In this document: positions 1,705 to 63,896 of the stretch, one piece after another
Position numbering within the stretch: position 1 is the stretch's first letter
Layout: each line of letters starts with the position of its first letter
Source: an uncultured Verrucomicrobiae bacterium
GTDB taxonomy: Bacteria > Verrucomicrobiota > Verrucomicrobiia > Limisphaerales > Palsa-1400
DNA length: 64,000 nt
NCBI GenBank assembly: GCA_963764165.1
Contig: CAVXRD010000002.1
Location: forward strand, 992,001-1,056,000
Direction: 5' to 3'
The notes under the pieces: generated by a model
Told to the model about the DNA's origin: nothing
The model's input: the letters and a program-made list of their open reading frames with translations, nothing else
The model's database searches: none
Made by a program: the position numbers and the translations under genes

Positions 1705-1895
1705 TTTAATCAGGAACGACCGAACTCAGGGACAGAGCCTGAATGCGGTATCCCGCTAATCTTAAGGCTCGTAGCCCTTCGATAAAACTCGCTTCTGAAA
1801 TCTGTCCCATAGTTCACATCACTCCCATGATTGGGGAAACTTGGGTGAATTTCTTTGAGAGCCTCTTTTCCTGAGTTCGGTCGTTCCTGATTAAA
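1705..1895. mobile_element. MITE-like element with 26-bp perfect terminal inverted repeats
   Basis: TTTAATCAGGAACGACCGAACTCAGG at 1705-1730 and its reverse complement at 1870-1895; same repeat flanks the GxxExxY gene. Confidence 0.8.
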
Positions 1896-22560: not shown

Positions 22561-22938
22561 GCCTTCCACCCCGGCCCCATGTTCTTGGGTTTTATCCACG
22601 TGATACTTAGGATATAGTGTCAATACCCCGCCTGTTTGCAAGCTAATTCCAGCCTAGGGGGGGAGGCTGGCGCTGCCCCGTTATCGGCTGTCTGGACCAA
22701 AGACTTGAATGATTTCGGAAACGCTGTCAGGACCGATAATTATCAATTTTTGGAGAAAAACTGAGGGAAATTGAATCTTGAACGACCAAACTCGCAAAAG
22801 AGGCCCCCTGAAACGATCCAAGCGGATTGGGAGCGCGGCCGCCCTAGTCGTCCAATCCTGAGTTCTTGAGTAAATTCGGCGTTGACTTGGCAGGCGGGGA
22901 GTTTCAATTTCCTCACAGCCGTGCAGCGGCTCAAACCC

Positions 22939-29877: not shown

Positions 29878-31746
29878 ATGGTTTCGGCGGAAAAATCATG
29901 GCTCGAAATGCTGAAGCGCTACTTCGGCTTCACTTCCTTTCGCCCGCTCCAGGCCGAAATTATTGGTGACACGCTGGCCGGGAAGGACGTGTTTGCATTG
30001 CTTCCCACCGGTGGTGGAAAATCACTCTGTTTTCAATTGCCAGCCCTTATCCGGCCTGGCTTGACCGTTGTCGTTTCGCCTTTGATTGCGCTGATGAAGG
30101 ATCAAGTCGATGCGATGCAGGCGGCGGGCGTGGCCGCGACGTATCTGAACTCCACTCTTTCAGCCGACGAATCAAGGACGCGTTTGCGCGGGTTGCACCA
30201 GCAGCAATATCGCCTGCTTTACGTCGCGCCGGAGCGTCTCATGCTGTCAGGATCGCTCGATGACCTGCAGCGTTGGAATGTCAGCATGATCGCGGTGGAC
30301 GAAGCCCATTGCATCAGCGAGTGGGGCCACGATTTTCGACCGGAATACCGCCAGCTTGCCGAATTGCGCGGCCACTTTCCAAACGTCCCCATGATGGCTC
30401 TTACCGCTACGGCGACTGAGCGCGTGCGGTCCGATGTCATTAATCTTCTGCAATTGCGCGAACCGAGTTGTTACGTCGCCAGCTTCAATCGGCCAAACTT
30501 GTCGTATCGCGTGGTGCCGCGGGCCAAGCCGACCGATCAGGTCTTGAAATTTCTGCGAGACCGCCGCCGTGACAGCGGCATTATTTACTGCCATAGCCGG
30601 AAGGGAACCGAGACGCTGTCCCAATTTTTGGCGGAGCACGGTGTTCCCGCCCGTCCCTATCACGCGGGGCTCAGCCCGAAGGAGCGCAACGACAACCAGG
30701 ATTTATTCCTGCGCGATGAAGTTCGCGTGATCTGCGCCACCATCGCCTTTGGGATGGGCATCAACAAGCCGAATGTCCGCTTCGTCATCCATTACGACTT
30801 GCCGAAGAACATCGAAGGCTACTACCAGGAAACCGGGCGCGCTGGCCGCGACGGTTTGCCGAGCGAATGTGTCTTGTTATTCAGCGCCGGCGACGTCGTC
30901 AAGCAACAGCGGTTCATCGAGGAAAAATCGCCGGAGGAGCAAGTCCACGCCCGGCAGCAGCTCCAGCAAATTGTCCATTACGCAGAGTCCGGCCAATGCC
31001 GGCGCGTGGAATTGCTGCGGTATTTCGGCGAGACGTTCGCCGCGGATAATTGCAACGGTTGCGACAATTGCCTCACGCCCCGCGCGACTTTCGACGGCAC
31101 GGTGGCTGCGCAAAAATTCTTGTCGTGCGTTTATCGGATCCAGCAGCGCAGCCATTTTGATACGGGGTTGAACCACGTTGTGGAAGTTCTTACCGGCGCG
31201 GACACAGACAAAATTCGCAATTGGGGCCACGACCAGCTTACCACTTACGGCATTGGCCGCGAGCATACGCGGCCCGAATGGCAGGCGCTCGGGCGGGAAT
31301 TGATCCGGCTCGGATATTTGCGGCAAGCCCCCGGCAAATTCAGCACCGTAAGCGTGACACCGGAAGGTTTCGCCGCGCTGCGCGAACGGAAAAAAATCGT
31401 CCTGACCACGCCTATGACGCCTGCCGCCGCGCCCGAGAAAGCGCCACGCACCGGAGCCATCAGTTGCGACGAGGCGCTTTTCGAGCGCCTGCGCCAGCTC
31501 CGCAAAACCCTCGCCGACGAGCGCTCCGTACCCGCCTACATCGTGTTTTCGGATGTCGCCCTGCGTCAGATGGCCCGCTACTACCCGGCCACGGACGAGG
31601 AATTCTCGCGCATCAGCGGAGTGGGCGAAAAGAAACTGGCCGAATTCGGAAAGGTGTTTCTTGAAGAAATCGCCACTCACCTCCGAGCCAATCCCCGCCA
31701 AATGTTCGCCGAGGAATCATTCCAGCCGCCCGGAAGACGGGCCTAA
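29878..31746 (+). CDS. recQ: ATP-dependent DNA helicase RecQ
   Basis: PTGGGKS, DEAHC, TATA, ATIAFGMG, YYQETGRAGRDG, Zn-binding C..CDNC, RQC and HRDC domains. Confidence 0.97.
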   Translation: MVSAEKSWLEMLKRYFGFTSFRPLQAEIIGDTLAGKDVFALLPTGGGKSLCFQLPALIRPGLTVVVSPLIALMKDQVDAMQAAGVAATYLNSTLSADESRTRLRGLHQQQYRLLYVAPERLMLSGSLDDLQRWNVSMIAVDEAHCISEWGHDFRPEYRQLAELRGHFPNVPMMALTATATERVRSDVINLLQLREPSCYVASFNRPNLSYRVVPRAKPTDQVLKFLRDRRRDSGIIYCHSRKGTETLSQFLAEHGVPARPYHAGLSPKERNDNQDLFLRDEVRVICATIAFGMGINKPNVRFVIHYDLPKNIEGYYQETGRAGRDGLPSECVLLFSAGDVVKQQRFIEEKSPEEQVHARQQLQQIVHYAESGQCRRVELLRYFGETFAADNCNGCDNCLTPRATFDGTVAAQKFLSCVYRIQQRSHFDTGLNHVVEVLTGADTDKIRNWGHDQLTTYGIGREHTRPEWQALGRELIRLGYLRQAPGKFSTVSVTPEGFAALRERKKIVLTTPMTPAAAPEKAPRTGAISCDEALFERLRQLRKTLADERSVPAYIVFSDVALRQMARYYPATDEEFSRISGVGEKKLAEFGKVFLEEIATHLRANPRQMFAEESFQPPGRRA

Positions 31747-31898
31747 AATCTGAGCCGCAGATGGACGCAGATAAGAAAAGACGGGGAAGAGTTGGGATAG
31801 GAGCCGGACTTTCTAACTTCATTGGATTGCTGTTTGTCAACCGAATGTCTTTTTCAGAAAATCTGCGTTGATCTGCGTCAATCTGCGGCTAAGATTTT
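31745..31898. repeat. Paired inverted repeat of the CGCAGAT 10-bp-period family
   Basis: aaaatctgagccgcagatggacgcagat (31745-31772) versus the reverse complement of 31871-31898: 26/28 identical. Confidence 0.85.
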
Positions 31899-31901
31899 GG
31901 C

Positions 31902-32930
31902 ATGCACTCAAAACATGGCGTTGGCGGAGCCGTTGGTTTGGCGATTTTGGCGGGAGCATTGGCGTTTGCGGGTTGTGGGAAGAAGACTGACGAAACTCCC
32001 AAGCAGCCGGGCGAAAAGACGTATGCCATTGCGGTCATTCCCAAGGGCACGACGCATGAGTATTGGAAATCTGTGCATGCGGGGGCGGTGAAGGCGCAGC
32101 AGGAATTGGCGGCGGCGGGGACGAAGGTGGAGTTGATTTGGAAGGGCCCTTACCGCGAGGATGATCGCGACCAGCAGATTCAGGTGGTCGAAAATTTCAC
32201 CAGCCGAAAAGTCGATGGCATCGTGCTCGCGCCGCTGGATTCGCAGGCCCTGGCGCCTGCCGCCGACAATGCGGTTGCGGCCGGCATTCCGGTGGTGATT
32301 ATCGATTCGGCGATTAAGTCGGACAAATGCCTGAGTTTTATCGCGACCGATAATTTCAAAGGCGGCGCGATGGCTGGAGATTTCCTGGCCAAATTGCTGA
32401 ATGAAAAGGGAAACGTGATCATGCTTCGTTACGCGGTCGGTTCTGCCAGCACGGAGGCTCGGGAAAAAGGCTTCATGGCGGAGATGGAGAAGTTTCCCAA
32501 CATCAAGCTCGTATCAACCGATCAATATGCCGGAGCCACACAAGAGACGGCTTATCAGGCGTCGCAAAATCTGTTGAATCGGTTCGGGAATGATTTGGAC
32601 GGCGTATTTTGCCCCGCTGAACCGATCACCATTGCGATGACGAAAGCGGTGCGGGACATTGGCAAGGCGGGTGGTAAGGTGAAAATCGTGGGCTTCGACG
32701 CCGGCACGAAATCGGTCGAGGATCTCAAGAACGGAGACGTTCAAGCGCTGACGCTGCAAAACCCGGTGCTGATGGGTTATGACGCCGTGATGTCCCTGGC
32801 GCGCCATTTCAAAGGCGAAAAAGTGGAATCCCGAATCGACACAGGGGCGGTGATCGTGACGCGGGAAAACATGGACCAGCCCGCGAATAAGGATTTGCTT
32901 TATCCGCCTCTGGAAAAATACCTGAAATAA
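31902..32930 (+). CDS. Sugar ABC transporter substrate-binding lipoprotein (RbsB-like)
   Basis: Lipobox FAG-C; IAVIPKGTTHEYW, DGIVLAP, GIPVVIIDS, ATDN, VGFD, QNP. Confidence 0.92.
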   Translation: MHSKHGVGGAVGLAILAGALAFAGCGKKTDETPKQPGEKTYAIAVIPKGTTHEYWKSVHAGAVKAQQELAAAGTKVELIWKGPYREDDRDQQIQVVENFTSRKVDGIVLAPLDSQALAPAADNAVAAGIPVVIIDSAIKSDKCLSFIATDNFKGGAMAGDFLAKLLNEKGNVIMLRYAVGSASTEAREKGFMAEMEKFPNIKLVSTDQYAGATQETAYQASQNLLNRFGNDLDGVFCPAEPITIAMTKAVRDIGKAGGKVKIVGFDAGTKSVEDLKNGDVQALTLQNPVLMGYDAVMSLARHFKGEKVESRIDTGAVIVTRENMDQPANKDLLYPPLEKYLK

Positions 32931-32958
32931 AAAAAGGATTAATCAGGAACGACCGAAC

Positions 32959-33399
32959 TCAGGAACGGAGATCTATCGGCCTGGCGTTCGCCGCGGCGAA
33001 GTTCGTGGCCTTGAGTTCCCTGGTGACGCGTTTCATGGTTAACGGCATGGTGGCGAAATTGAGCAACAAGCCGTCGCGGAGATGCAGTGCCTTCATATAC
33101 GACCGAGTTATTGAAAAGAAAATGTCATCAAGGGCTTTAGCCGCTTTCAACTCCACGACCAGCACGCCCTCGACAAGCATATCAAGTCGATGCTCGCCGA
33201 TTTGGCGACCGCGGTAAGTGATTGGCACTACCTTTTGTCGCTCATACCGGATGCCTTGAAAATCAAGTTCTATCGCCAAAGCTGATTCATAAATCGATTC
33301 GAGAAACCCCGGGCCAAGGGCTAAATGAACTTGGATGGCCGCCCCAATGACTTTTCCGCTCAATCCTTTGTTGCCTAGATTGTTTGACTCAAATGCCAC
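32959..33399 (-). CDS. GxxExxY protein (PD-(D/E)XK nuclease-like)
   Basis: VHLALGPGFLESIYESAL, HRLDMLVE, VVELKA, GLLLNF. Confidence 0.93.
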   Translation of the reverse strand: MAFESNNLGNKGLSGKVIGAAIQVHLALGPGFLESIYESALAIELDFQGIRYERQKVVPITYRGRQIGEHRLDMLVEGVLVVELKAAKALDDIFFSITRSYMKALHLRDGLLLNFATMPLTMKRVTRELKATNFAAANARPIDLRS

Positions 33400-33405
33400 A
33401 GCCGC

Positions 33406-33433
33406 ATCCTAAAATCCCCGGTTATGTTGTCAA
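33406..33433 (-). promoter_or_regulatory. Sigma70-type promoter of the GxxExxY gene (leaderless spacing)
   Basis: Minus strand TTGACA-N16-TAGGAT, then 6 nt to the GTG start at 33399. Confidence 0.6.
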
Positions 33434-33510
33434 CGAAACTTCCGGAGAACCGGGGGCAAACATAAGCCCCTAAGTCCTCCGTTTCCTGAGTTCGGTCGTT
33501 CCAGATTAAA

Positions 33511-34062
33511 TCATCTGAATTCTTCCCGAAAAACCTTCCAGTGCGCCAAGTCCAACGGCGTTTCACCCGAGTCAATCTTTCGGATCTCCTCAATCACCTC
33601 GTCGATGCTTCCAAAGATCTGATTGGTGCGCAGCGTTCCGAAGATCCAGAACGGACAGGCGTTGCGGCCTTCGGCGACGACTAGAAAGATTGGCTTCTTC
33701 ATGCGGTTGGCCCAGAAGACCTCCTCGGCCGTTCCCCAAGAAGCGGTCTTGGCCGAAATGGACGCTATCAGGAAATCCGCCCGGTCCACCAAGCTCAAAT
33801 CCTCCACGCGGATTTTTCGCATGATCTTGGACAGTTCGTCGAATTGGCCCTCTTCCCGAAGCTTGGTCAGCTTGGCCATGTGTTCTTTGTCCTCATTCAC
33901 GGAATCCATGAACGGCTTCTTGAGCGGATCGAAGAAAATGATGCCGGTGCCGGCCAGCTCGGTTTTGGTTTTCTCACGCCAGGAGCCGGGCGCGTTGCTG
34001 TTCTCGATGTTGCCGGCGAGGTAGCATTTTGTGCGGTGAAGATTGTGCGTCGTCATTTCCAT
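33511..34062 (-). CDS. Nucleoside 2-deoxyribosyltransferase-like protein
   Basis: YLAGNI...WRE...FFDP...D...VDRADFLIA...SWGTAEE...KPI pattern of the NDT/DNPH1 fold. Confidence 0.7.
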   Translation of the reverse strand: MEMTTHNLHRTKCYLAGNIENSNAPGSWREKTKTELAGTGIIFFDPLKKPFMDSVNEDKEHMAKLTKLREEGQFDELSKIMRKIRVEDLSLVDRADFLIASISAKTASWGTAEEVFWANRMKKPIFLVVAEGRNACPFWIFGTLRTNQIFGSIDEVIEEIRKIDSGETPLDLAHWKVFREEFR

Positions 34063-34312: not shown

Positions 34313-35398
34313 TCAAAGTCCCATGACTTTCTTCACGGCGGAGATGTCCGCGGGAACTATGATCGGCTCGAATCCCGCCGTGGCAATGGCACTGTCTGGA
34401 TCCTTCAAACCGTGGCCGGTCATGGTGGCGGCGATCACGCTGCCCTCGGGAATCTTACTTGCTTTCACGCAACGAATTAGACCCGCCAGGCATGCCGCCG
34501 AGGCGGGTTCCACGAACACGCCATCGGCGCGGGCCATCAGCTTGTAGGCAGCCATGATTTCTTCATCTGTCACACTGTCGATAAAGCCGTTGGAATCCTT
34601 CAAAACCTGGGTTGCCACCGTCCAACTGGCTGGATTGCCGATGCGAATGGCGCTGGCCACCGTTTGCGGGTCTTCGATAATCCGCCCCAAAACCATTGGA
34701 GCCGCCCCCGCCGCCTGAAACCCGAACATTCTTGGCAAGCCGCTCGATTTCCCGGCGTCCTTGTATTGATTGTAACCGCGCCAGTAAGCGGTGATATTTC
34801 CGGCGTTGCCCACGGGCAGGAAATGAAAATCCGGCGCGCGGCCAAGCTGGTCGCAAATCTCGAACGCCGCCGTTTTCTGCCCTTCGATGCGGACGGGGTT
34901 AATGCTGTTGACAATTTCAATCTCCGCCACCTTCCCCAATTCGCGCACAATGGCGAGGGCTTGGTCAAAGTTGCCTTCCAGCGAGAGGGTCACCGCCCCG
35001 TACATGAGAGCCTGAGCCAGTTTGCCAAGGGCAATTTTTCCGTGCGGCAGCAGCACGACGCATTTCATGCCGGCCCGCGCCGCATACGCCGCGGCGGAGG
35101 CCGAAGTGTTGCCGGTGCTGGCGCAAACAACAATTCCCGCTCCGCGCTCCTTAGCCTTGGAAACAGCCATCGTCATCCCGCGATCCTTGAAGGAGCAGGT
35201 GGGATTGACGCCTTCGTATTTGAGCCACAATTCGAAACCGCCGCCCAGCGCCCTGGCAAAATTATCCACGCGAATCAGCGGCGTGTTTCCTTCGTTCAAT
35301 GAAACCACCGGCGTGGCATCCGTGACCGGCAGCCATTCGCGATACGCGTCAATGACCCCGCGCCAGCGATTTCCCGCGTTGGGAAGAATGGAGTTCAT
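34313..35398 (-). CDS. thrC: Threonine synthase
   Basis: EGNTPL, NPTCSFKDRG (PLP lysine), CASTGNTSAS, PVGNAGN, TGHGLKD. Confidence 0.96.
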   Translation of the reverse strand: MNSILPNAGNRWRGVIDAYREWLPVTDATPVVSLNEGNTPLIRVDNFARALGGGFELWLKYEGVNPTCSFKDRGMTMAVSKAKERGAGIVVCASTGNTSASAAAYAARAGMKCVVLLPHGKIALGKLAQALMYGAVTLSLEGNFDQALAIVRELGKVAEIEIVNSINPVRIEGQKTAAFEICDQLGRAPDFHFLPVGNAGNITAYWRGYNQYKDAGKSSGLPRMFGFQAAGAAPMVLGRIIEDPQTVASAIRIGNPASWTVATQVLKDSNGFIDSVTDEEIMAAYKLMARADGVFVEPASAACLAGLIRCVKASKIPEGSVIAATMTGHGLKDPDSAIATAGFEPIIVPADISAVKKVMGL

Positions 35399-35410
35399 GG
35401 CAAAGATAAG

Positions 35411-36721
35411 TTACGCAAAATTCTCGACTCGCAACATCATCGGCGGGCCTTTGACGACGGGCAACCGGGCAATTTTACCCAGCGCCTTTTGCACCGCGCC
35501 ATCGGTCGCCCGATGGCTCATGAGCACCAAGGGCACGCTCTTGCCTTCGCGGCCTTCCGTCTGGATGACCGACGAGATGCCAATCTTCGATGCCGCCAGG
35601 ATCGAGGTGATGCGCGCCAGTGAACCCGGCTTGTCAACAACATCGAAGCGCAGATAATACCGCGAGACCGCCTCGGAAATGGGGAGCACCGTCGCATCGT
35701 CGTCGTGCGATACGAACGATGGGACGCGGCCATGGGAGCCATATTTCAAATCCAACGCGGCATCCGCAATGTCGCTCAGCACGGCGCTGGCGGTCGCGTC
35801 CTTGCCCGCCCCGCGCCCGTAAAATAGCGTGTCGCCCACCACATCACCGCGGCAGAAGACGGCGTTGAAAACATGATTGACGCTGGCCAGGACGTGGTCG
35901 TTGGGAATCAGAGCTGGATAAACCGAAACTTGGATGGTTTTGCGCCGCCCGCCCGCTGCCGCCTTGACCACCCCGAGCAGTTTGATGGTGTAACCCATCT
36001 TTCCCGCAAATTCAATGTCCGCTTGCGTGACATTGCGAATGCCTTCCACATGAATCTGGCTCGAATTGACCCAAAATCCGTGCGCCAGCGAGGCGAGGAT
36101 GCCGATCTTGTGCTCCGAATCGTAACCGTCAATATCAAGCGAGGGATCTGCCTCGGCATAACCCAGCTTTTGCGCCTCGGCGAGCGTTTGATCAAACCTC
36201 AGCCCCTCCAACTTCATCCGCGTGAGGATGTAATTGCAGGTACCGTTGACGATTCCGTAAATATGCGAAATATGATTTCCGACAAACCCCTCGCGCAGCG
36301 CCTTGATGATCGGAATGCCGCCCGCCACGCTCGCTTCGTAATAAATATTTGTGCCGGTTCCTTTTGCGGCAGCGAACAATTCCTCGCCGTGCGTCGAGAG
36401 CAGCGCCTTGTTCGCGGTGATGACGGGTTTTCCCGCCGCCAGCGCTGTCAAAATCATTTTCTTCGCCACGGTCGTTCCTCCGGCCAACTCGATGACAACA
36501 TGCACCTCTGGATCATTGACAACAGAGAGCCAGTCAGTAGTCAGCAGCGAAGCGGGGATGGGGTAGGCGCGAGTTTTGGCCGGGTCCTGGACGGCGATTT
36601 TCCGCATGGCAAGCTTCACGCGCAGGCGGGATTCCATCAGGGCCCGGTTTTTATGCAAGTGATGATAGACCCCGCTGGCGACGGTGCCTCCTCCAATCAT
36701 ACCCAGATTGATCTGTTGCAT
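35411..36721 (-). CDS. hom: Homoserine dehydrogenase with C-terminal ACT domain
   Basis: GGGTV, VITANK, YEASVAGGIP, NGTCNYIL, GYAEADP, GRGAG..TASAV, DKPG. Confidence 0.96.
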   Translation of the reverse strand: MQQINLGMIGGGTVASGVYHHLHKNRALMESRLRVKLAMRKIAVQDPAKTRAYPIPASLLTTDWLSVVNDPEVHVVIELAGGTTVAKKMILTALAAGKPVITANKALLSTHGEELFAAAKGTGTNIYYEASVAGGIPIIKALREGFVGNHISHIYGIVNGTCNYILTRMKLEGLRFDQTLAEAQKLGYAEADPSLDIDGYDSEHKIGILASLAHGFWVNSSQIHVEGIRNVTQADIEFAGKMGYTIKLLGVVKAAAGGRRKTIQVSVYPALIPNDHVLASVNHVFNAVFCRGDVVGDTLFYGRGAGKDATASAVLSDIADAALDLKYGSHGRVPSFVSHDDDATVLPISEAVSRYYLRFDVVDKPGSLARITSILAASKIGISSVIQTEGREGKSVPLVLMSHRATDGAVQKALGKIARLPVVKGPPMMLRVENFA

Positions 36722-39696: not shown

Positions 39697-39798
39697 GGCA
39701 GGGACGCCTCGCCGGGGCGTCCGGGGTGAGGCATTATACACGCAGATGCCACGGAATTTTTCTGGCGCCACTGGACCCCTCGGCGAGGCGCAGCTGCC
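39697..39798. repeat. REPIN-like doublet, family A
   Basis: ggcagggacgcctcgccggggcgtccgg and a degenerate inverted partner ctggacccctcggcgaggcgcagctgcc. Confidence 0.8.
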
Positions 39799-39821
39799 TA
39801 AAACCAGATTGCGCTGCCCGG

Positions 39822-41720: not shown

Positions 41721-41979
41721 GACATGAGCAAATTACGGCATCCCAATAAATGGCTAAACACGGCCAAAGTCAAGCGGGGAAGGGCAATTGCCCTTGCTAG
41801 CCTATACTGCCGCCCAAAAGGCGTTCATCGTAAGCCGCGATTGAAACGGCCCTGAAGAGAAGACCAAAATCAATAATCTCTTGGACGGGCACTTCCTTGA
41901 GACTGTCTACGAGAGCGCGCAGAGGAACACCAACACAAATCCACACCCACTGAAAACAGCGTGGAACCGCTTTTCCCAA

Positions 41980-42010
41980 GTCTGCGCTGATCTGCGCCCG
42001 TCTGCGGCTA
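41980..42010. repeat. Solo arm of the CGCAGAT family
   Basis: gtctgcgctg atctgcgccc gtctgcggct resembles 31861-31890. Confidence 0.7.
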
Positions 42011-45397: not shown

Positions 45398-46023
45398 AGA
45401 GAATACTCGTAATTGAAGACGAACCCGGAATGCTGTCGAATCTGCGCGACATCCTGGAAATGGAGAATTTCGAGCCGCTGCTGGCGCCCGACGGCGAGGA
45501 GGGAATCGCCGCCGCAAAGCGCGAACTGCCCGATCTCATCCTGTGCGATGTGCTCATGCCAAAGCAGGACGGCCACGAAGTCCTCACGGCGTTGCGGGCC
45601 GAAAACGCGACTGCGCGCATCCCGTTTATATTTTTGACAGCAAAAGGCGAGCACGCGGACGTTCGCATGGGCATGACGCTCGGCGCGGATGATTATCTCA
45701 TCAAGCCCGTGAAGGTCGACGATTTGCTCGAGGCCATTTCCGCCCGTCTCGAACGCGCCCAGCAGCAATGCGGATTCGAAGCCAGTTTCAGCTCGCCCAA
45801 ACCGCTGGAAGGATTGGGAATTTCGCCTCGCGAATCGGAAATTCTATTCTGGGTCGCACAGGGGAAAACAAATTACGAGGCGGGAGTCATTTTGAACATC
45901 AGCACGGCCACGGTGAAAAAACATCTCGAGCACATCTACGAAAAACTGGGCGTGGAAGGCCGCAATGCCGCAACGCTGATCGCGCTAAAAACACTGGGGA
46001 CACATACGCAAACCCAAAGGTAG
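45394..46023 (+). CDS. Response regulator, receiver plus LuxR HTH
   Basis: VIEDE, LCDVLMP, FLTAK, KP; ISPRESEIL.W...GKTN...TVKKH. Confidence 0.94.
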   Translation: MKRILVIEDEPGMLSNLRDILEMENFEPLLAPDGEEGIAAAKRELPDLILCDVLMPKQDGHEVLTALRAENATARIPFIFLTAKGEHADVRMGMTLGADDYLIKPVKVDDLLEAISARLERAQQQCGFEASFSSPKPLEGLGISPRESEILFWVAQGKTNYEAGVILNISTATVKKHLEHIYEKLGVEGRNAATLIALKTLGTHTQTQR

Positions 46024-46118
46024 ACGCCTCGCCGAGGTGTCCGGTTGCGCGTGGTTTATGCGACAGCTTTCGCATGCAGAGAGCCTCACCCCGGACGCCT
46101 CGGCGAGGCGTCCCTACC
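46019..46118. repeat. REPIN-like doublet, family A
   Basis: ggtagacgcctcgccgaggtgtccgg ... ccggacgcctcggcgaggcgtccctacc; GTAG end overlaps the regulator stop codon. Confidence 0.85.
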
Positions 46119-54405: not shown

Positions 54406-54543
54406 TTGAATCTGGAACGGCCGAACTCAGGAAATGAGACTGAAGATGGATTCACACGCGCCGTTTATTTGGGACGGAGCGCCACCGGGCTTTTTTTCAA
54501 CAATGATCTTTTCACTCCGCGTCCTCGGTCTTCCTCCTGTTCA
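54406..54543. repeat. Hybrid repeat pair: GxxExxY-type left arm and related right arm
   Basis: ttgaatctggaacggccgaactcaggaaatgag (54406-54438); inverted TGAACAGGAGGAAGACCGAGGACGCGGAG (54515-54543) similar to 58991-59021. Confidence 0.7.
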
Positions 54544-54560: not shown

Positions 54561-54703
54561 GGCAGACGCATCTTAATTCCAAGGCACCGCCTCGCCGAGG
54601 CGTCCGGAGTCAGGCATTCGTCACGCGCCAGCCGTGGCATTATTCCCGCGCAACCGGACGCCTCGGCGAGGCGTCCCTGCCTCAGAATTTAGATGCGTCT
54701 GCC
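54561..54703. repeat. REPIN-like doublet, family A, with extended arms
   Basis: ggcagacgcatcttaattc...cgcctcgccgaggcgtccgg pairs with ccggacgcctcggcgaggcg...gaatttagatgcgtctgcc. Confidence 0.85.
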
Positions 54704-63757: not shown

Positions 63758-63896
63758 GGCGGGATAATGGCCACAGATTTACACAGATCAACACAGATTT
63801 CCCAAAAAAGCGTTCTATTAACGAGTGTCACCTTGCTTCTGGCACCATCGTGTGCGCCAATTCTCATCTGTGTTGATCTGCGGCTCATTCCCGCCG
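63757..63896. repeat. Paired inverted repeat of the CACAGAT/CGCAGAT family
   Basis: cggcggga..gccacagatttacacagatcaacacagat versus atctgtgttgatctgcggctcattcccgccg. Confidence 0.8.

Follow-up and report, generated by a model that had tools for sequence, protein, structure and literature searches.

The window, that is, the whole 64,000-nt stretch of DNA from an uncultured Verrucomicrobiae bacterium analysed here, contains between two convergent host genes a cassette of 571 bp (32939..33509, unstranded), in which a single small gene is enclosed by inverted repeats, referred to below as arms. Outside the element, family matches identify a gene for an RbsB-like sugar-binding periplasmic protein on one side (31902..32930, + strand) and a gene for a nucleoside 2-deoxyribosyltransferase-like protein on the other (33511..34062, − strand). 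Between the left arm (32939..32970, +, 32 nt) and the right arm (33477..33509, −, 33 nt) there are one mismatch and one indel, as stated in the initial annotation of this DNA. The right arm lies 1 nt past the stop of the convergent gene upstream. The unit that it outlined is real, with a length of 571 bp instead of 572 bp, base 33510 being unpaired. Its single GxxExxY ORF was likewise found in place (32959..33399, −, 146 aa), matching both TIGR04256 and PF13366, with a TGA stop (32961-32959) that lies inside the left arm, in its third unit. The hexamers taken for a promoter are present as a sigma-70-like site (33406..33433, −) whose −10 element ends 7 nt ahead of the GTG start, and a transcript initiated there would possibly be leaderless; however, one match against 0.6 expected in shuffled sequence is not above chance, and a promoter-like site at similar placement was seen at 2 of 83 loci (this cassette and L024).

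The GxxExxY protein scores 120 bits against TIGR04256 (cut-off 35) and 116 bits against PF13366 (cut-off 22), the latter being the only match among domain families; it does not fall into the GIY-YIG family cd10448. Its structure model (pLDDT 88) has the PD-(D/E)XK core fold, and the best fold matches are Cas4, lambda-type exonucleases and restriction enzymes, at a middling level of similarity (Z ≤ 7.9). Searches of solved structures by sequence gave no real match, and the ESM Atlas returned GxxExxY clusters only. The predicted catalytic residues E34, D73, E83 and K85 are all intact; all 112 proteins compared have E34, D73 and E/D83, while K85 is conserved in 109 of them, and the median dN/dS among close relatives of the gene is 0.06 over 28 pairs. 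There is no separate DNA-binding domain. The family is listed with function unknown in the available part of one source (PMC3424549), and we found no literature linking GxxExxY to repeats in a search that was thin on subscription journals. We also noted a divergent branch of longer GxxExxY proteins, about 270-300 aa with a C-terminal extension, at eight loci (L192-L198, L200), none of which showed typical arms.

The left arm is built of a 3-nt A/T end, three 8-bp units and a short purine-rich tail, two of the units being of the CAGGAA type and the middle one lineage-specific; arms of the family likewise consist of three 8-bp units preceded by an A/T end. Single arms barely fold (−1.4 to −1.7 kcal/mol) and are therefore not REP palindromes. 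Elsewhere in the window, a gene-less arm pair of 189 bp (1706..1894, unstranded) agrees to within a base at either end with the element annotated at 1705-1895, and occurs at the same site in a sister lineage (L368). The degenerate arm reported at 54406-54438 corresponds to a solo arm (54407..54433, +) with 3 mismatches to the left arm, and a decayed arm that had escaped the earlier annotation lies at 22772..22798 (+), with the remnant of a partner visible by eye near 22857-22880. The gene-less pair begins 1 nt past the stop codon of a 271-aa GIY-YIG-domain gene (889-1704), which was considered as the enzyme and dropped, having arms on one side only. In the sister lineage (L368), the GIY-YIG gene is preceded closely upstream by a GxxExxY gene that belongs to another branch and is not found here. 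The window also holds gene-less arms made of triple repeats with a period of 10 (31745-31898, 41978-42010 and 63770-63895), akin to those at the third GxxExxY gene of the genome and at a gene fragment described below. Three further segments (39697-39799, 46023-46118 and 54588-54682) are copies of the most abundant palindromic repeat of the genome, which has 16-mers in up to 330 copies and flanks no Y1 transposase match.

The search of the whole genome for the arm, which the initial annotation had proposed, placed the cassette within a large dispersed family. At up to 6 mismatches, 153 copies were found in the 7.0-Mb genome, as compared with 0, 1 and 0 matches at up to 7 mismatches for three shuffled arms. 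A profile recovered 195 arms and the reversed profile none, and gene-bearing, empty and solo copies could be counted: 62 inward pairs, against 2 outward and 3 direct ones, and 71 solo arms. The cassette at 32939-33509 is the single gene-bearing copy of this family of about 200 arms. Only 1% of the arms lie inside called genes, compared with 81% coding DNA in the genome (gene calls were made with a simple purpose-made caller). Most inward pairs (46 of 62) span 140-200 bp and 24 of 62 lie between divergent genes; their spacers are homologous and far diverged, with scores above 30 in 19.7% of 1035 comparisons versus 0.1% after shuffling. As many as 116 of the 195 arms are within 3 mismatches of the arms of the gene itself, and arms paired together differ by 5.45 mismatches, versus 6.87±0.26 for random arms. 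Where a co-directional gene ends within 60 bp of an arm (51 arms), the arm begins at −4 to +1 of the stop codon in 16 cases. A decayed inward partner was recognizable for only 3-4 of the 71 solo arms. GC skew in the genome is too weak for the arms to be sorted by replication strand.

Over the 62 pairs (k=2-8, nine boundary offsets), no target-site duplication of at least 3 bp exceeded expectation, in keeping with the earlier remark that no clear duplication was seen; the one exception in the scan was a self-complementary 4-bp end (14 vs 9.1). Among the ten inward pairs lying 250-5000 bp apart, only the cassette at 32939-33509 tightly encloses an intact gene, and no transposase was apparent by eye in any of them. 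One arm pair (G000:C1:983468-984163, G000 being this genome) encloses other cargo, decayed as judged by eye, which we take to be the remains of a VapBC-type toxin-antitoxin pair. The initial annotation had named arms flanking a conventional transposase as evidence against its proposal; none of the 10 Y1 transposase (PF01797) matches in the genome has an arm within 700 bp, and several of them carry palindromic repeats of their own. Such RAYT-like Y1 genes with their own palindromic families (G000:C1:293973, C2:390390, C2:1942606, C2:3187467, C4:1840 and C5:52626) coexist with GxxExxY systems in this genome.

We found three intact GxxExxY genes in the genome, each beside a different triple repeat, the periods across these genes and a gene fragment being 8, 9 or 10. 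Arms of the three intact genes number 129, 59 and 121, and those of the fragment 34; the 59-copy family, with a period of 9, belongs to the gene at G000:C2:709769-710116 (L020, L213), and the 121-copy family, with a period of 10, to the one at G000:C2:1601711-1602052 (L214). Two GxxExxY fragments of other branches (G000:C1:65156-65308 and C1:453374-453565) are still adjoined by their own arm types. When arms from cassettes of other genomes were used as seeds (n=18), 13 gave 0 copies here and the remaining five gave 2, 3, 11, 14 and 29, the last being the family of the fragment, a control biased toward zero because foreign seeds are lineage variants.

The association extends well beyond this genome. 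We assembled 170 GxxExxY loci, 90 from among the matches listed for 41 genomes and the best 80 of 289 relatives, and used the 165 with full flanks for counting inverted repeats. In line with the enrichment envisaged at the outset, an inverted repeat spanned the gene at 102 of the 165 loci; the controls gave 2 of 87 for shifted windows and 6 of 200 for small host genes. A profile built from the arms of this genome alone, applied to 79 close relatives (one locus without the motif having been dropped), detected this arm type on either side of the gene in 73 and enclosing it in 58; no arm was detectable in the other 6, and the type was found at 0 of 86 other GxxExxY genes. In a tree of 112 proteins, for which one in four of the close relatives was retained, the repeat unit is particular to each supported branch, the units coming from an automatic extractor that missed many arms and mis-called a few. 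The arm thus co-varies with the protein tree, as had been proposed for examination: the nearest-neighbour score was 16.1, versus 11.5±0.3 after shuffling (reached in 0 of 300 trials). To separate host from protein, we compared the 78 loci with a detected repeat. Arms were alike (at least 16 of 20 positions) in 2 of 79 same-genome gene pairs, as opposed to 103 of 221 different-genome pairs with at least 55% protein identity, indicating that the arm follows the protein branch and not the host. This branch occurs in several phyla; in 250 genomes of the phylum it is carried by 9, and at least five exact arm matches were found in 6 of these 9 versus 1 of the 241 others, kin among them not being independent, which overstates the significance of the contrast. 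In the three gene-bearing genomes without exact matches, variant arms enclose the gene. The lineage-specific middle unit is common to the arms of the gene itself and to the commonest dispersed arms, and is present in 0 of 171 arms of relatives. We regard the pairing of gene and arm as practically certain.

Four congeners have no arm matches, compared with 128 here, and this protein branch, represented in the genome by one gene copy, is found in 1 of 40 near relatives, so that gene and arms expanded in this lineage; genome G004 yielded a single profile match in 1.6 Mb. The middle unit was detected in one metagenome assembly only, at 51 loci of a sister lineage of roughly 85-92% identity. At these loci, 17 sites are shared with our genome (counting two loci that overlap on a single contig and L375, whose match may stem from repeat-derived similarity), 5 have no arm here and 29 lack a unique flank. 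In 11 orthologous pairs, arm cores are identical at 503 of 528 positions (95%), spacers at 924 of 1201 (816 of 1010 without two inverted spacers), outer flanks at 496 of 612 and four-fold codon sites at 1189 of 1628; the arm value is inflated on the sister side, where loci were chosen by exact arm pattern, and unselected on ours. Arms at inherited sites are therefore conserved above the neutral level. Two of the 11 spacers are inverted between the lineages, an arm of the old type has been replaced in place by one of the new type in one case, and copies have been gained or lost since the lineages separated. At one site (L371), the arm pair of the sister lineage and a two-gene module here (G000:C2:2905211-2906015) are alternative occupants; we presume this module to be of the PIN-type toxin-antitoxin kind.

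Several observations on insertion sites speak for mobility. The 79 close relatives occupy 48 neighbour contexts; 28 of them, however, sit at one shared junction, presumably nuoF-nuoG, which argues that this branch has mostly been inherited and has not been jumping. Seven cassettes of other branches occupy junctions that are empty in our genome (gap −32 to 38 bp), and cassettes of some other branches split tightly coupled operon genes. Within the window, the 12-bp junction before a threonine-synthase-like gene (35398-35411) is the empty form of a cassette site in genome G015 (L019). For one gene-less insert, which begins immediately behind a stop codon, the empty site is present in G004; the insert extends 20-30 bp past the arms, so that the arms may not be the true ends. 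For the cassette at 32939-33509, the empty site that the initial annotation suggested looking for was not found: relatives that possess the two flanking genes do not have them side by side, the sugar-binding gene being present in 4 of 5 genomes searched and the deoxyribosyltransferase-like gene in 2 of 5, with no arm after either stop codon. Four further element sites likewise gave no empty site. The idea of elements as markers of rearrangement breakpoints drew a mixed answer in G004 (1.6 of 5.3 Mb covered), where 1 of 31 arm junctions is syntenic; this does not differ from arm-free junctions of like length (1/24 vs 32/304, p=0.49), but does differ from short junctions (99 of 350 syntenic, p=0.001).

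Arms were also encountered apart from the gene. Genomes G031 (96% complete) and G012 (98% complete) have 23 and 8 arm matches, respectively, and no GxxExxY match, while G146 has 8 arm matches and only distant GxxExxY genes; no decayed GxxExxY sequence was seen next to the arms at 20 loci in G012, G031 and G028. In addition, 119 viral stretches hold arms with no GxxExxY gene inside them, and none was present in the 5 whole viral records checked. Eight viral contigs (L378, L430, L431, L434, L438, L443, L447 and L449) carry as many as six arms within 5-7 kb, interspersed with triple repeats of other families and in some cases bracketing small ORFs. Arms without the gene are compatible with loss of the gene or with its acting in trans, and also with some other driver.

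We read these data as pointing to a repeat system of the RAYT/REPIN or Ssn kind that would be run by a third enzyme fold, and would give this reading a probability of roughly 0.6. Of the two layouts suggested initially, RAYT plus REPIN agrees with the enrichment of flanking repeats, the covariation of arm and protein and the lack of arms at Y1 genes, whereas an autonomous element plus MITE fits less well, given the missing target duplications, fuzzy ends, diverged spacers, numerous solo arms and single gene copy. On sequence evidence, the GxxExxY protein probably binds or cuts its own arm, and we lean slightly towards its being also what spreads the arms. Direct recognition is the simplest account, because the arm sequence is conserved and changes in parallel with the protein, its spread being confined to places where the protein's branch is present or was likely present before. 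The protein would act as a sequence-specific DNA nuclease that binds the three-unit arm, each 8-bp unit serving as one protein-binding site, and nicks or cuts beside it. The host may mend such cuts through recombination or template switching between arms; this would account for homogenized arms, inverted spacers, the existence of solo arms and the missing target duplications. Occasionally, repair might place a copy of an arm pair, or of the complete cassette, in an intergenic gap not occupied before, frequently just behind a stop codon.

The arms could instead be sites adopted by the host, bound by GxxExxY or by a host nucleoid protein to the benefit of the cell, for example to restrict incoming DNA or to organize the chromosome, with new copies arising passively by recombination and the nuclease not being the driver of spread. 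Their conservation well above neutral at inherited sites and their persistence in genomes without the gene agree with this, as does the scarcity of GxxExxY on mobile replicons (8 of 72,556 plasmid records and none among 50,697 phage records). There are also precedents, as far as the available texts go: paired triple repeats in Geobacter were read as IHF/HU-type regulator sites (PMC2700814), and SsnA limits transformation in Neisseria (PMC11893778). However, the gap between this genome and its congeners, together with the single match in G004, points to a lineage-specific burst that a conserved host protein leaves unexplained, and this one genome has three different arm families, each of which goes with a GxxExxY gene of its own. 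As the full explanation we consider host adoption unlikely, although it and a nuclease-run repeat system can both hold in part.

Alternatively, the cassette might operate at the RNA level, the arms forming a stem in read-through transcripts that would be processed by RNase III or by GxxExxY acting on RNA, and the repeats being kept for mRNA processing as in ORF-bearing 23S rRNA intervening sequences. Indeed, the cassette and the gene-less copy fold as long stems (z −5.9 with 20 shuffles and z −8.9 with 200 shuffles), paired arms are more alike than random ones, 46 of the 79 close relatives are co-oriented with both neighbours, and the splitting of tightly coupled operon genes by other cassettes points the same way. 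The Coxiella intervening sequence, as described in the available text (PMC4990558), is comparably built, with 428 nt, a 28-bp terminal stem, tandem heptamers and a loop ORF. This account is weakened by the lack of any G:U bias toward the transcribed strand in arm mismatches (37 vs 45, 48 vs 61, 12 vs 18), by the solo arms, so few of which have a decayed partner, and by the pairs located between divergent genes; moreover, the arm sequence itself, beyond its pairing, is conserved and branch-specific, and the neighbours of 32939-33509 are convergent. We judge it rather improbable. It is most improbable that the arms are terminal inverted repeats of MITEs moved in trans by an ordinary transposase encoded elsewhere, with GxxExxY as a passenger: inverted ends, homologous spacers of similar length, the pair with other cargo and the arms in phage contigs would suit it, but there are no target duplications, no arms at Y1 genes and no transposase seen within the wider pairs of this genome, of which only one tightly holds an intact gene; moreover, co-evolution with the arm across phyla would not be expected of a passenger.

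The widespread GxxExxY family gains a testable substrate, the cognate sequence being readable from the DNA beside each gene, and the three systems of this genome make cross-specificity directly testable. The dozens of natural enzyme-arm pairs constitute a panel for studying specificity change in a tiny single-domain protein, and the family might supply small site-specific nucleases, as Ssn has done. If the nuclease-run reading is true, it adds a third enzyme fold to the repeat-associated nucleases, after HUH in RAYT and GIY-YIG in Ssn, and accounts for a type of intergenic repeat that is abundant in Verrucomicrobiota and other phyla. More tentatively, and at somewhat less than even odds in our estimation, GxxExxY proteins could form a very large, little-studied family of site-specific nucleases of ~130 residues, every member adapted to a triple-repeat arm of 24-30 bp of its own, that without a transposase copy arms and themselves into gene junctions, homogenize the arms and deliver arms even to phages, which would make them a third, independently evolved REPIN-like replicator, on a restriction-enzyme fold.

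Comparison with known systems shows that the closest resemblance is to REPIN-RAYT and Ssn, and that neither includes the present one, because the enzyme fold is different and the arm is not palindromic. In the available description of REPIN-RAYT by Bertels and Rainey (10.1101/2021.07.10.451892), extragenic inverted pairs number in the hundreds, their arms conserved and their spacers variable; the repeats also flank a single gene for the cognate enzyme, more than one such system can share a genome, and the enzyme gene is rare on plasmids. These features have counterparts here, where the repeats are inverted, conserved, extragenic, variably spaced and present in many copies (62 inward pairs). 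In contrast, RAYT is an HUH/Y1 enzyme and GxxExxY a PD-(D/E)XK one, and the arm is a non-palindromic triple direct repeat and no short palindrome, with a fold energy of about −1.6 kcal/mol, as opposed to −6 to −12 for two repeats that flank RAYT genes in the same genome. The GxxExxY gene, single-copy here, occurs at many sites in several phyla and may not be strictly vertical, although 28 of the 79 relatives share one site. With Ssn and its NTS/SRM repeats, as presented in the available text (PMC11893778), the system shares a small single-domain nuclease flanked by its own dispersed repeat in a repeat-gene-repeat layout, many enzyme-repeat pairs each with its own specificity, and no transposase. 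Ssn, however, belongs to the GIY-YIG fold, its repeat is a hairpin-forming semi-palindrome, and its cleavage of ssDNA is proven.

The other similarities are more partial, and are given as far as the respective sources are available. The Coxiella intervening sequence with S23p (PMC4990558) is alike in size (about 430-570 nt), in a terminal stem near 30 bp, in tandem short repeats within the arm and in one small loop ORF; it differs in that sites here are intergenic between protein genes instead of in rRNA, the ORF has a nuclease fold, gene-less and solo copies are abundant, and there is no sign of selection for RNA pairing. The regulator sites of classes 1-2 in Geobacter metallireducens (PMC2700814) similarly form opposite-strand pairs at variable distance, each with three or four tandem 8-9-bp repeats, but have another unit sequence and are described as IHF/HU sites, with no nuclease-gene link in the available portion of that account. 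Finally, TIRtrons with TIRYTs (PMC3733652) also have an enzyme gene within terminal inverted repeats that form a dispersed family, the enzymes in that case being tyrosine (HUH) transposases.
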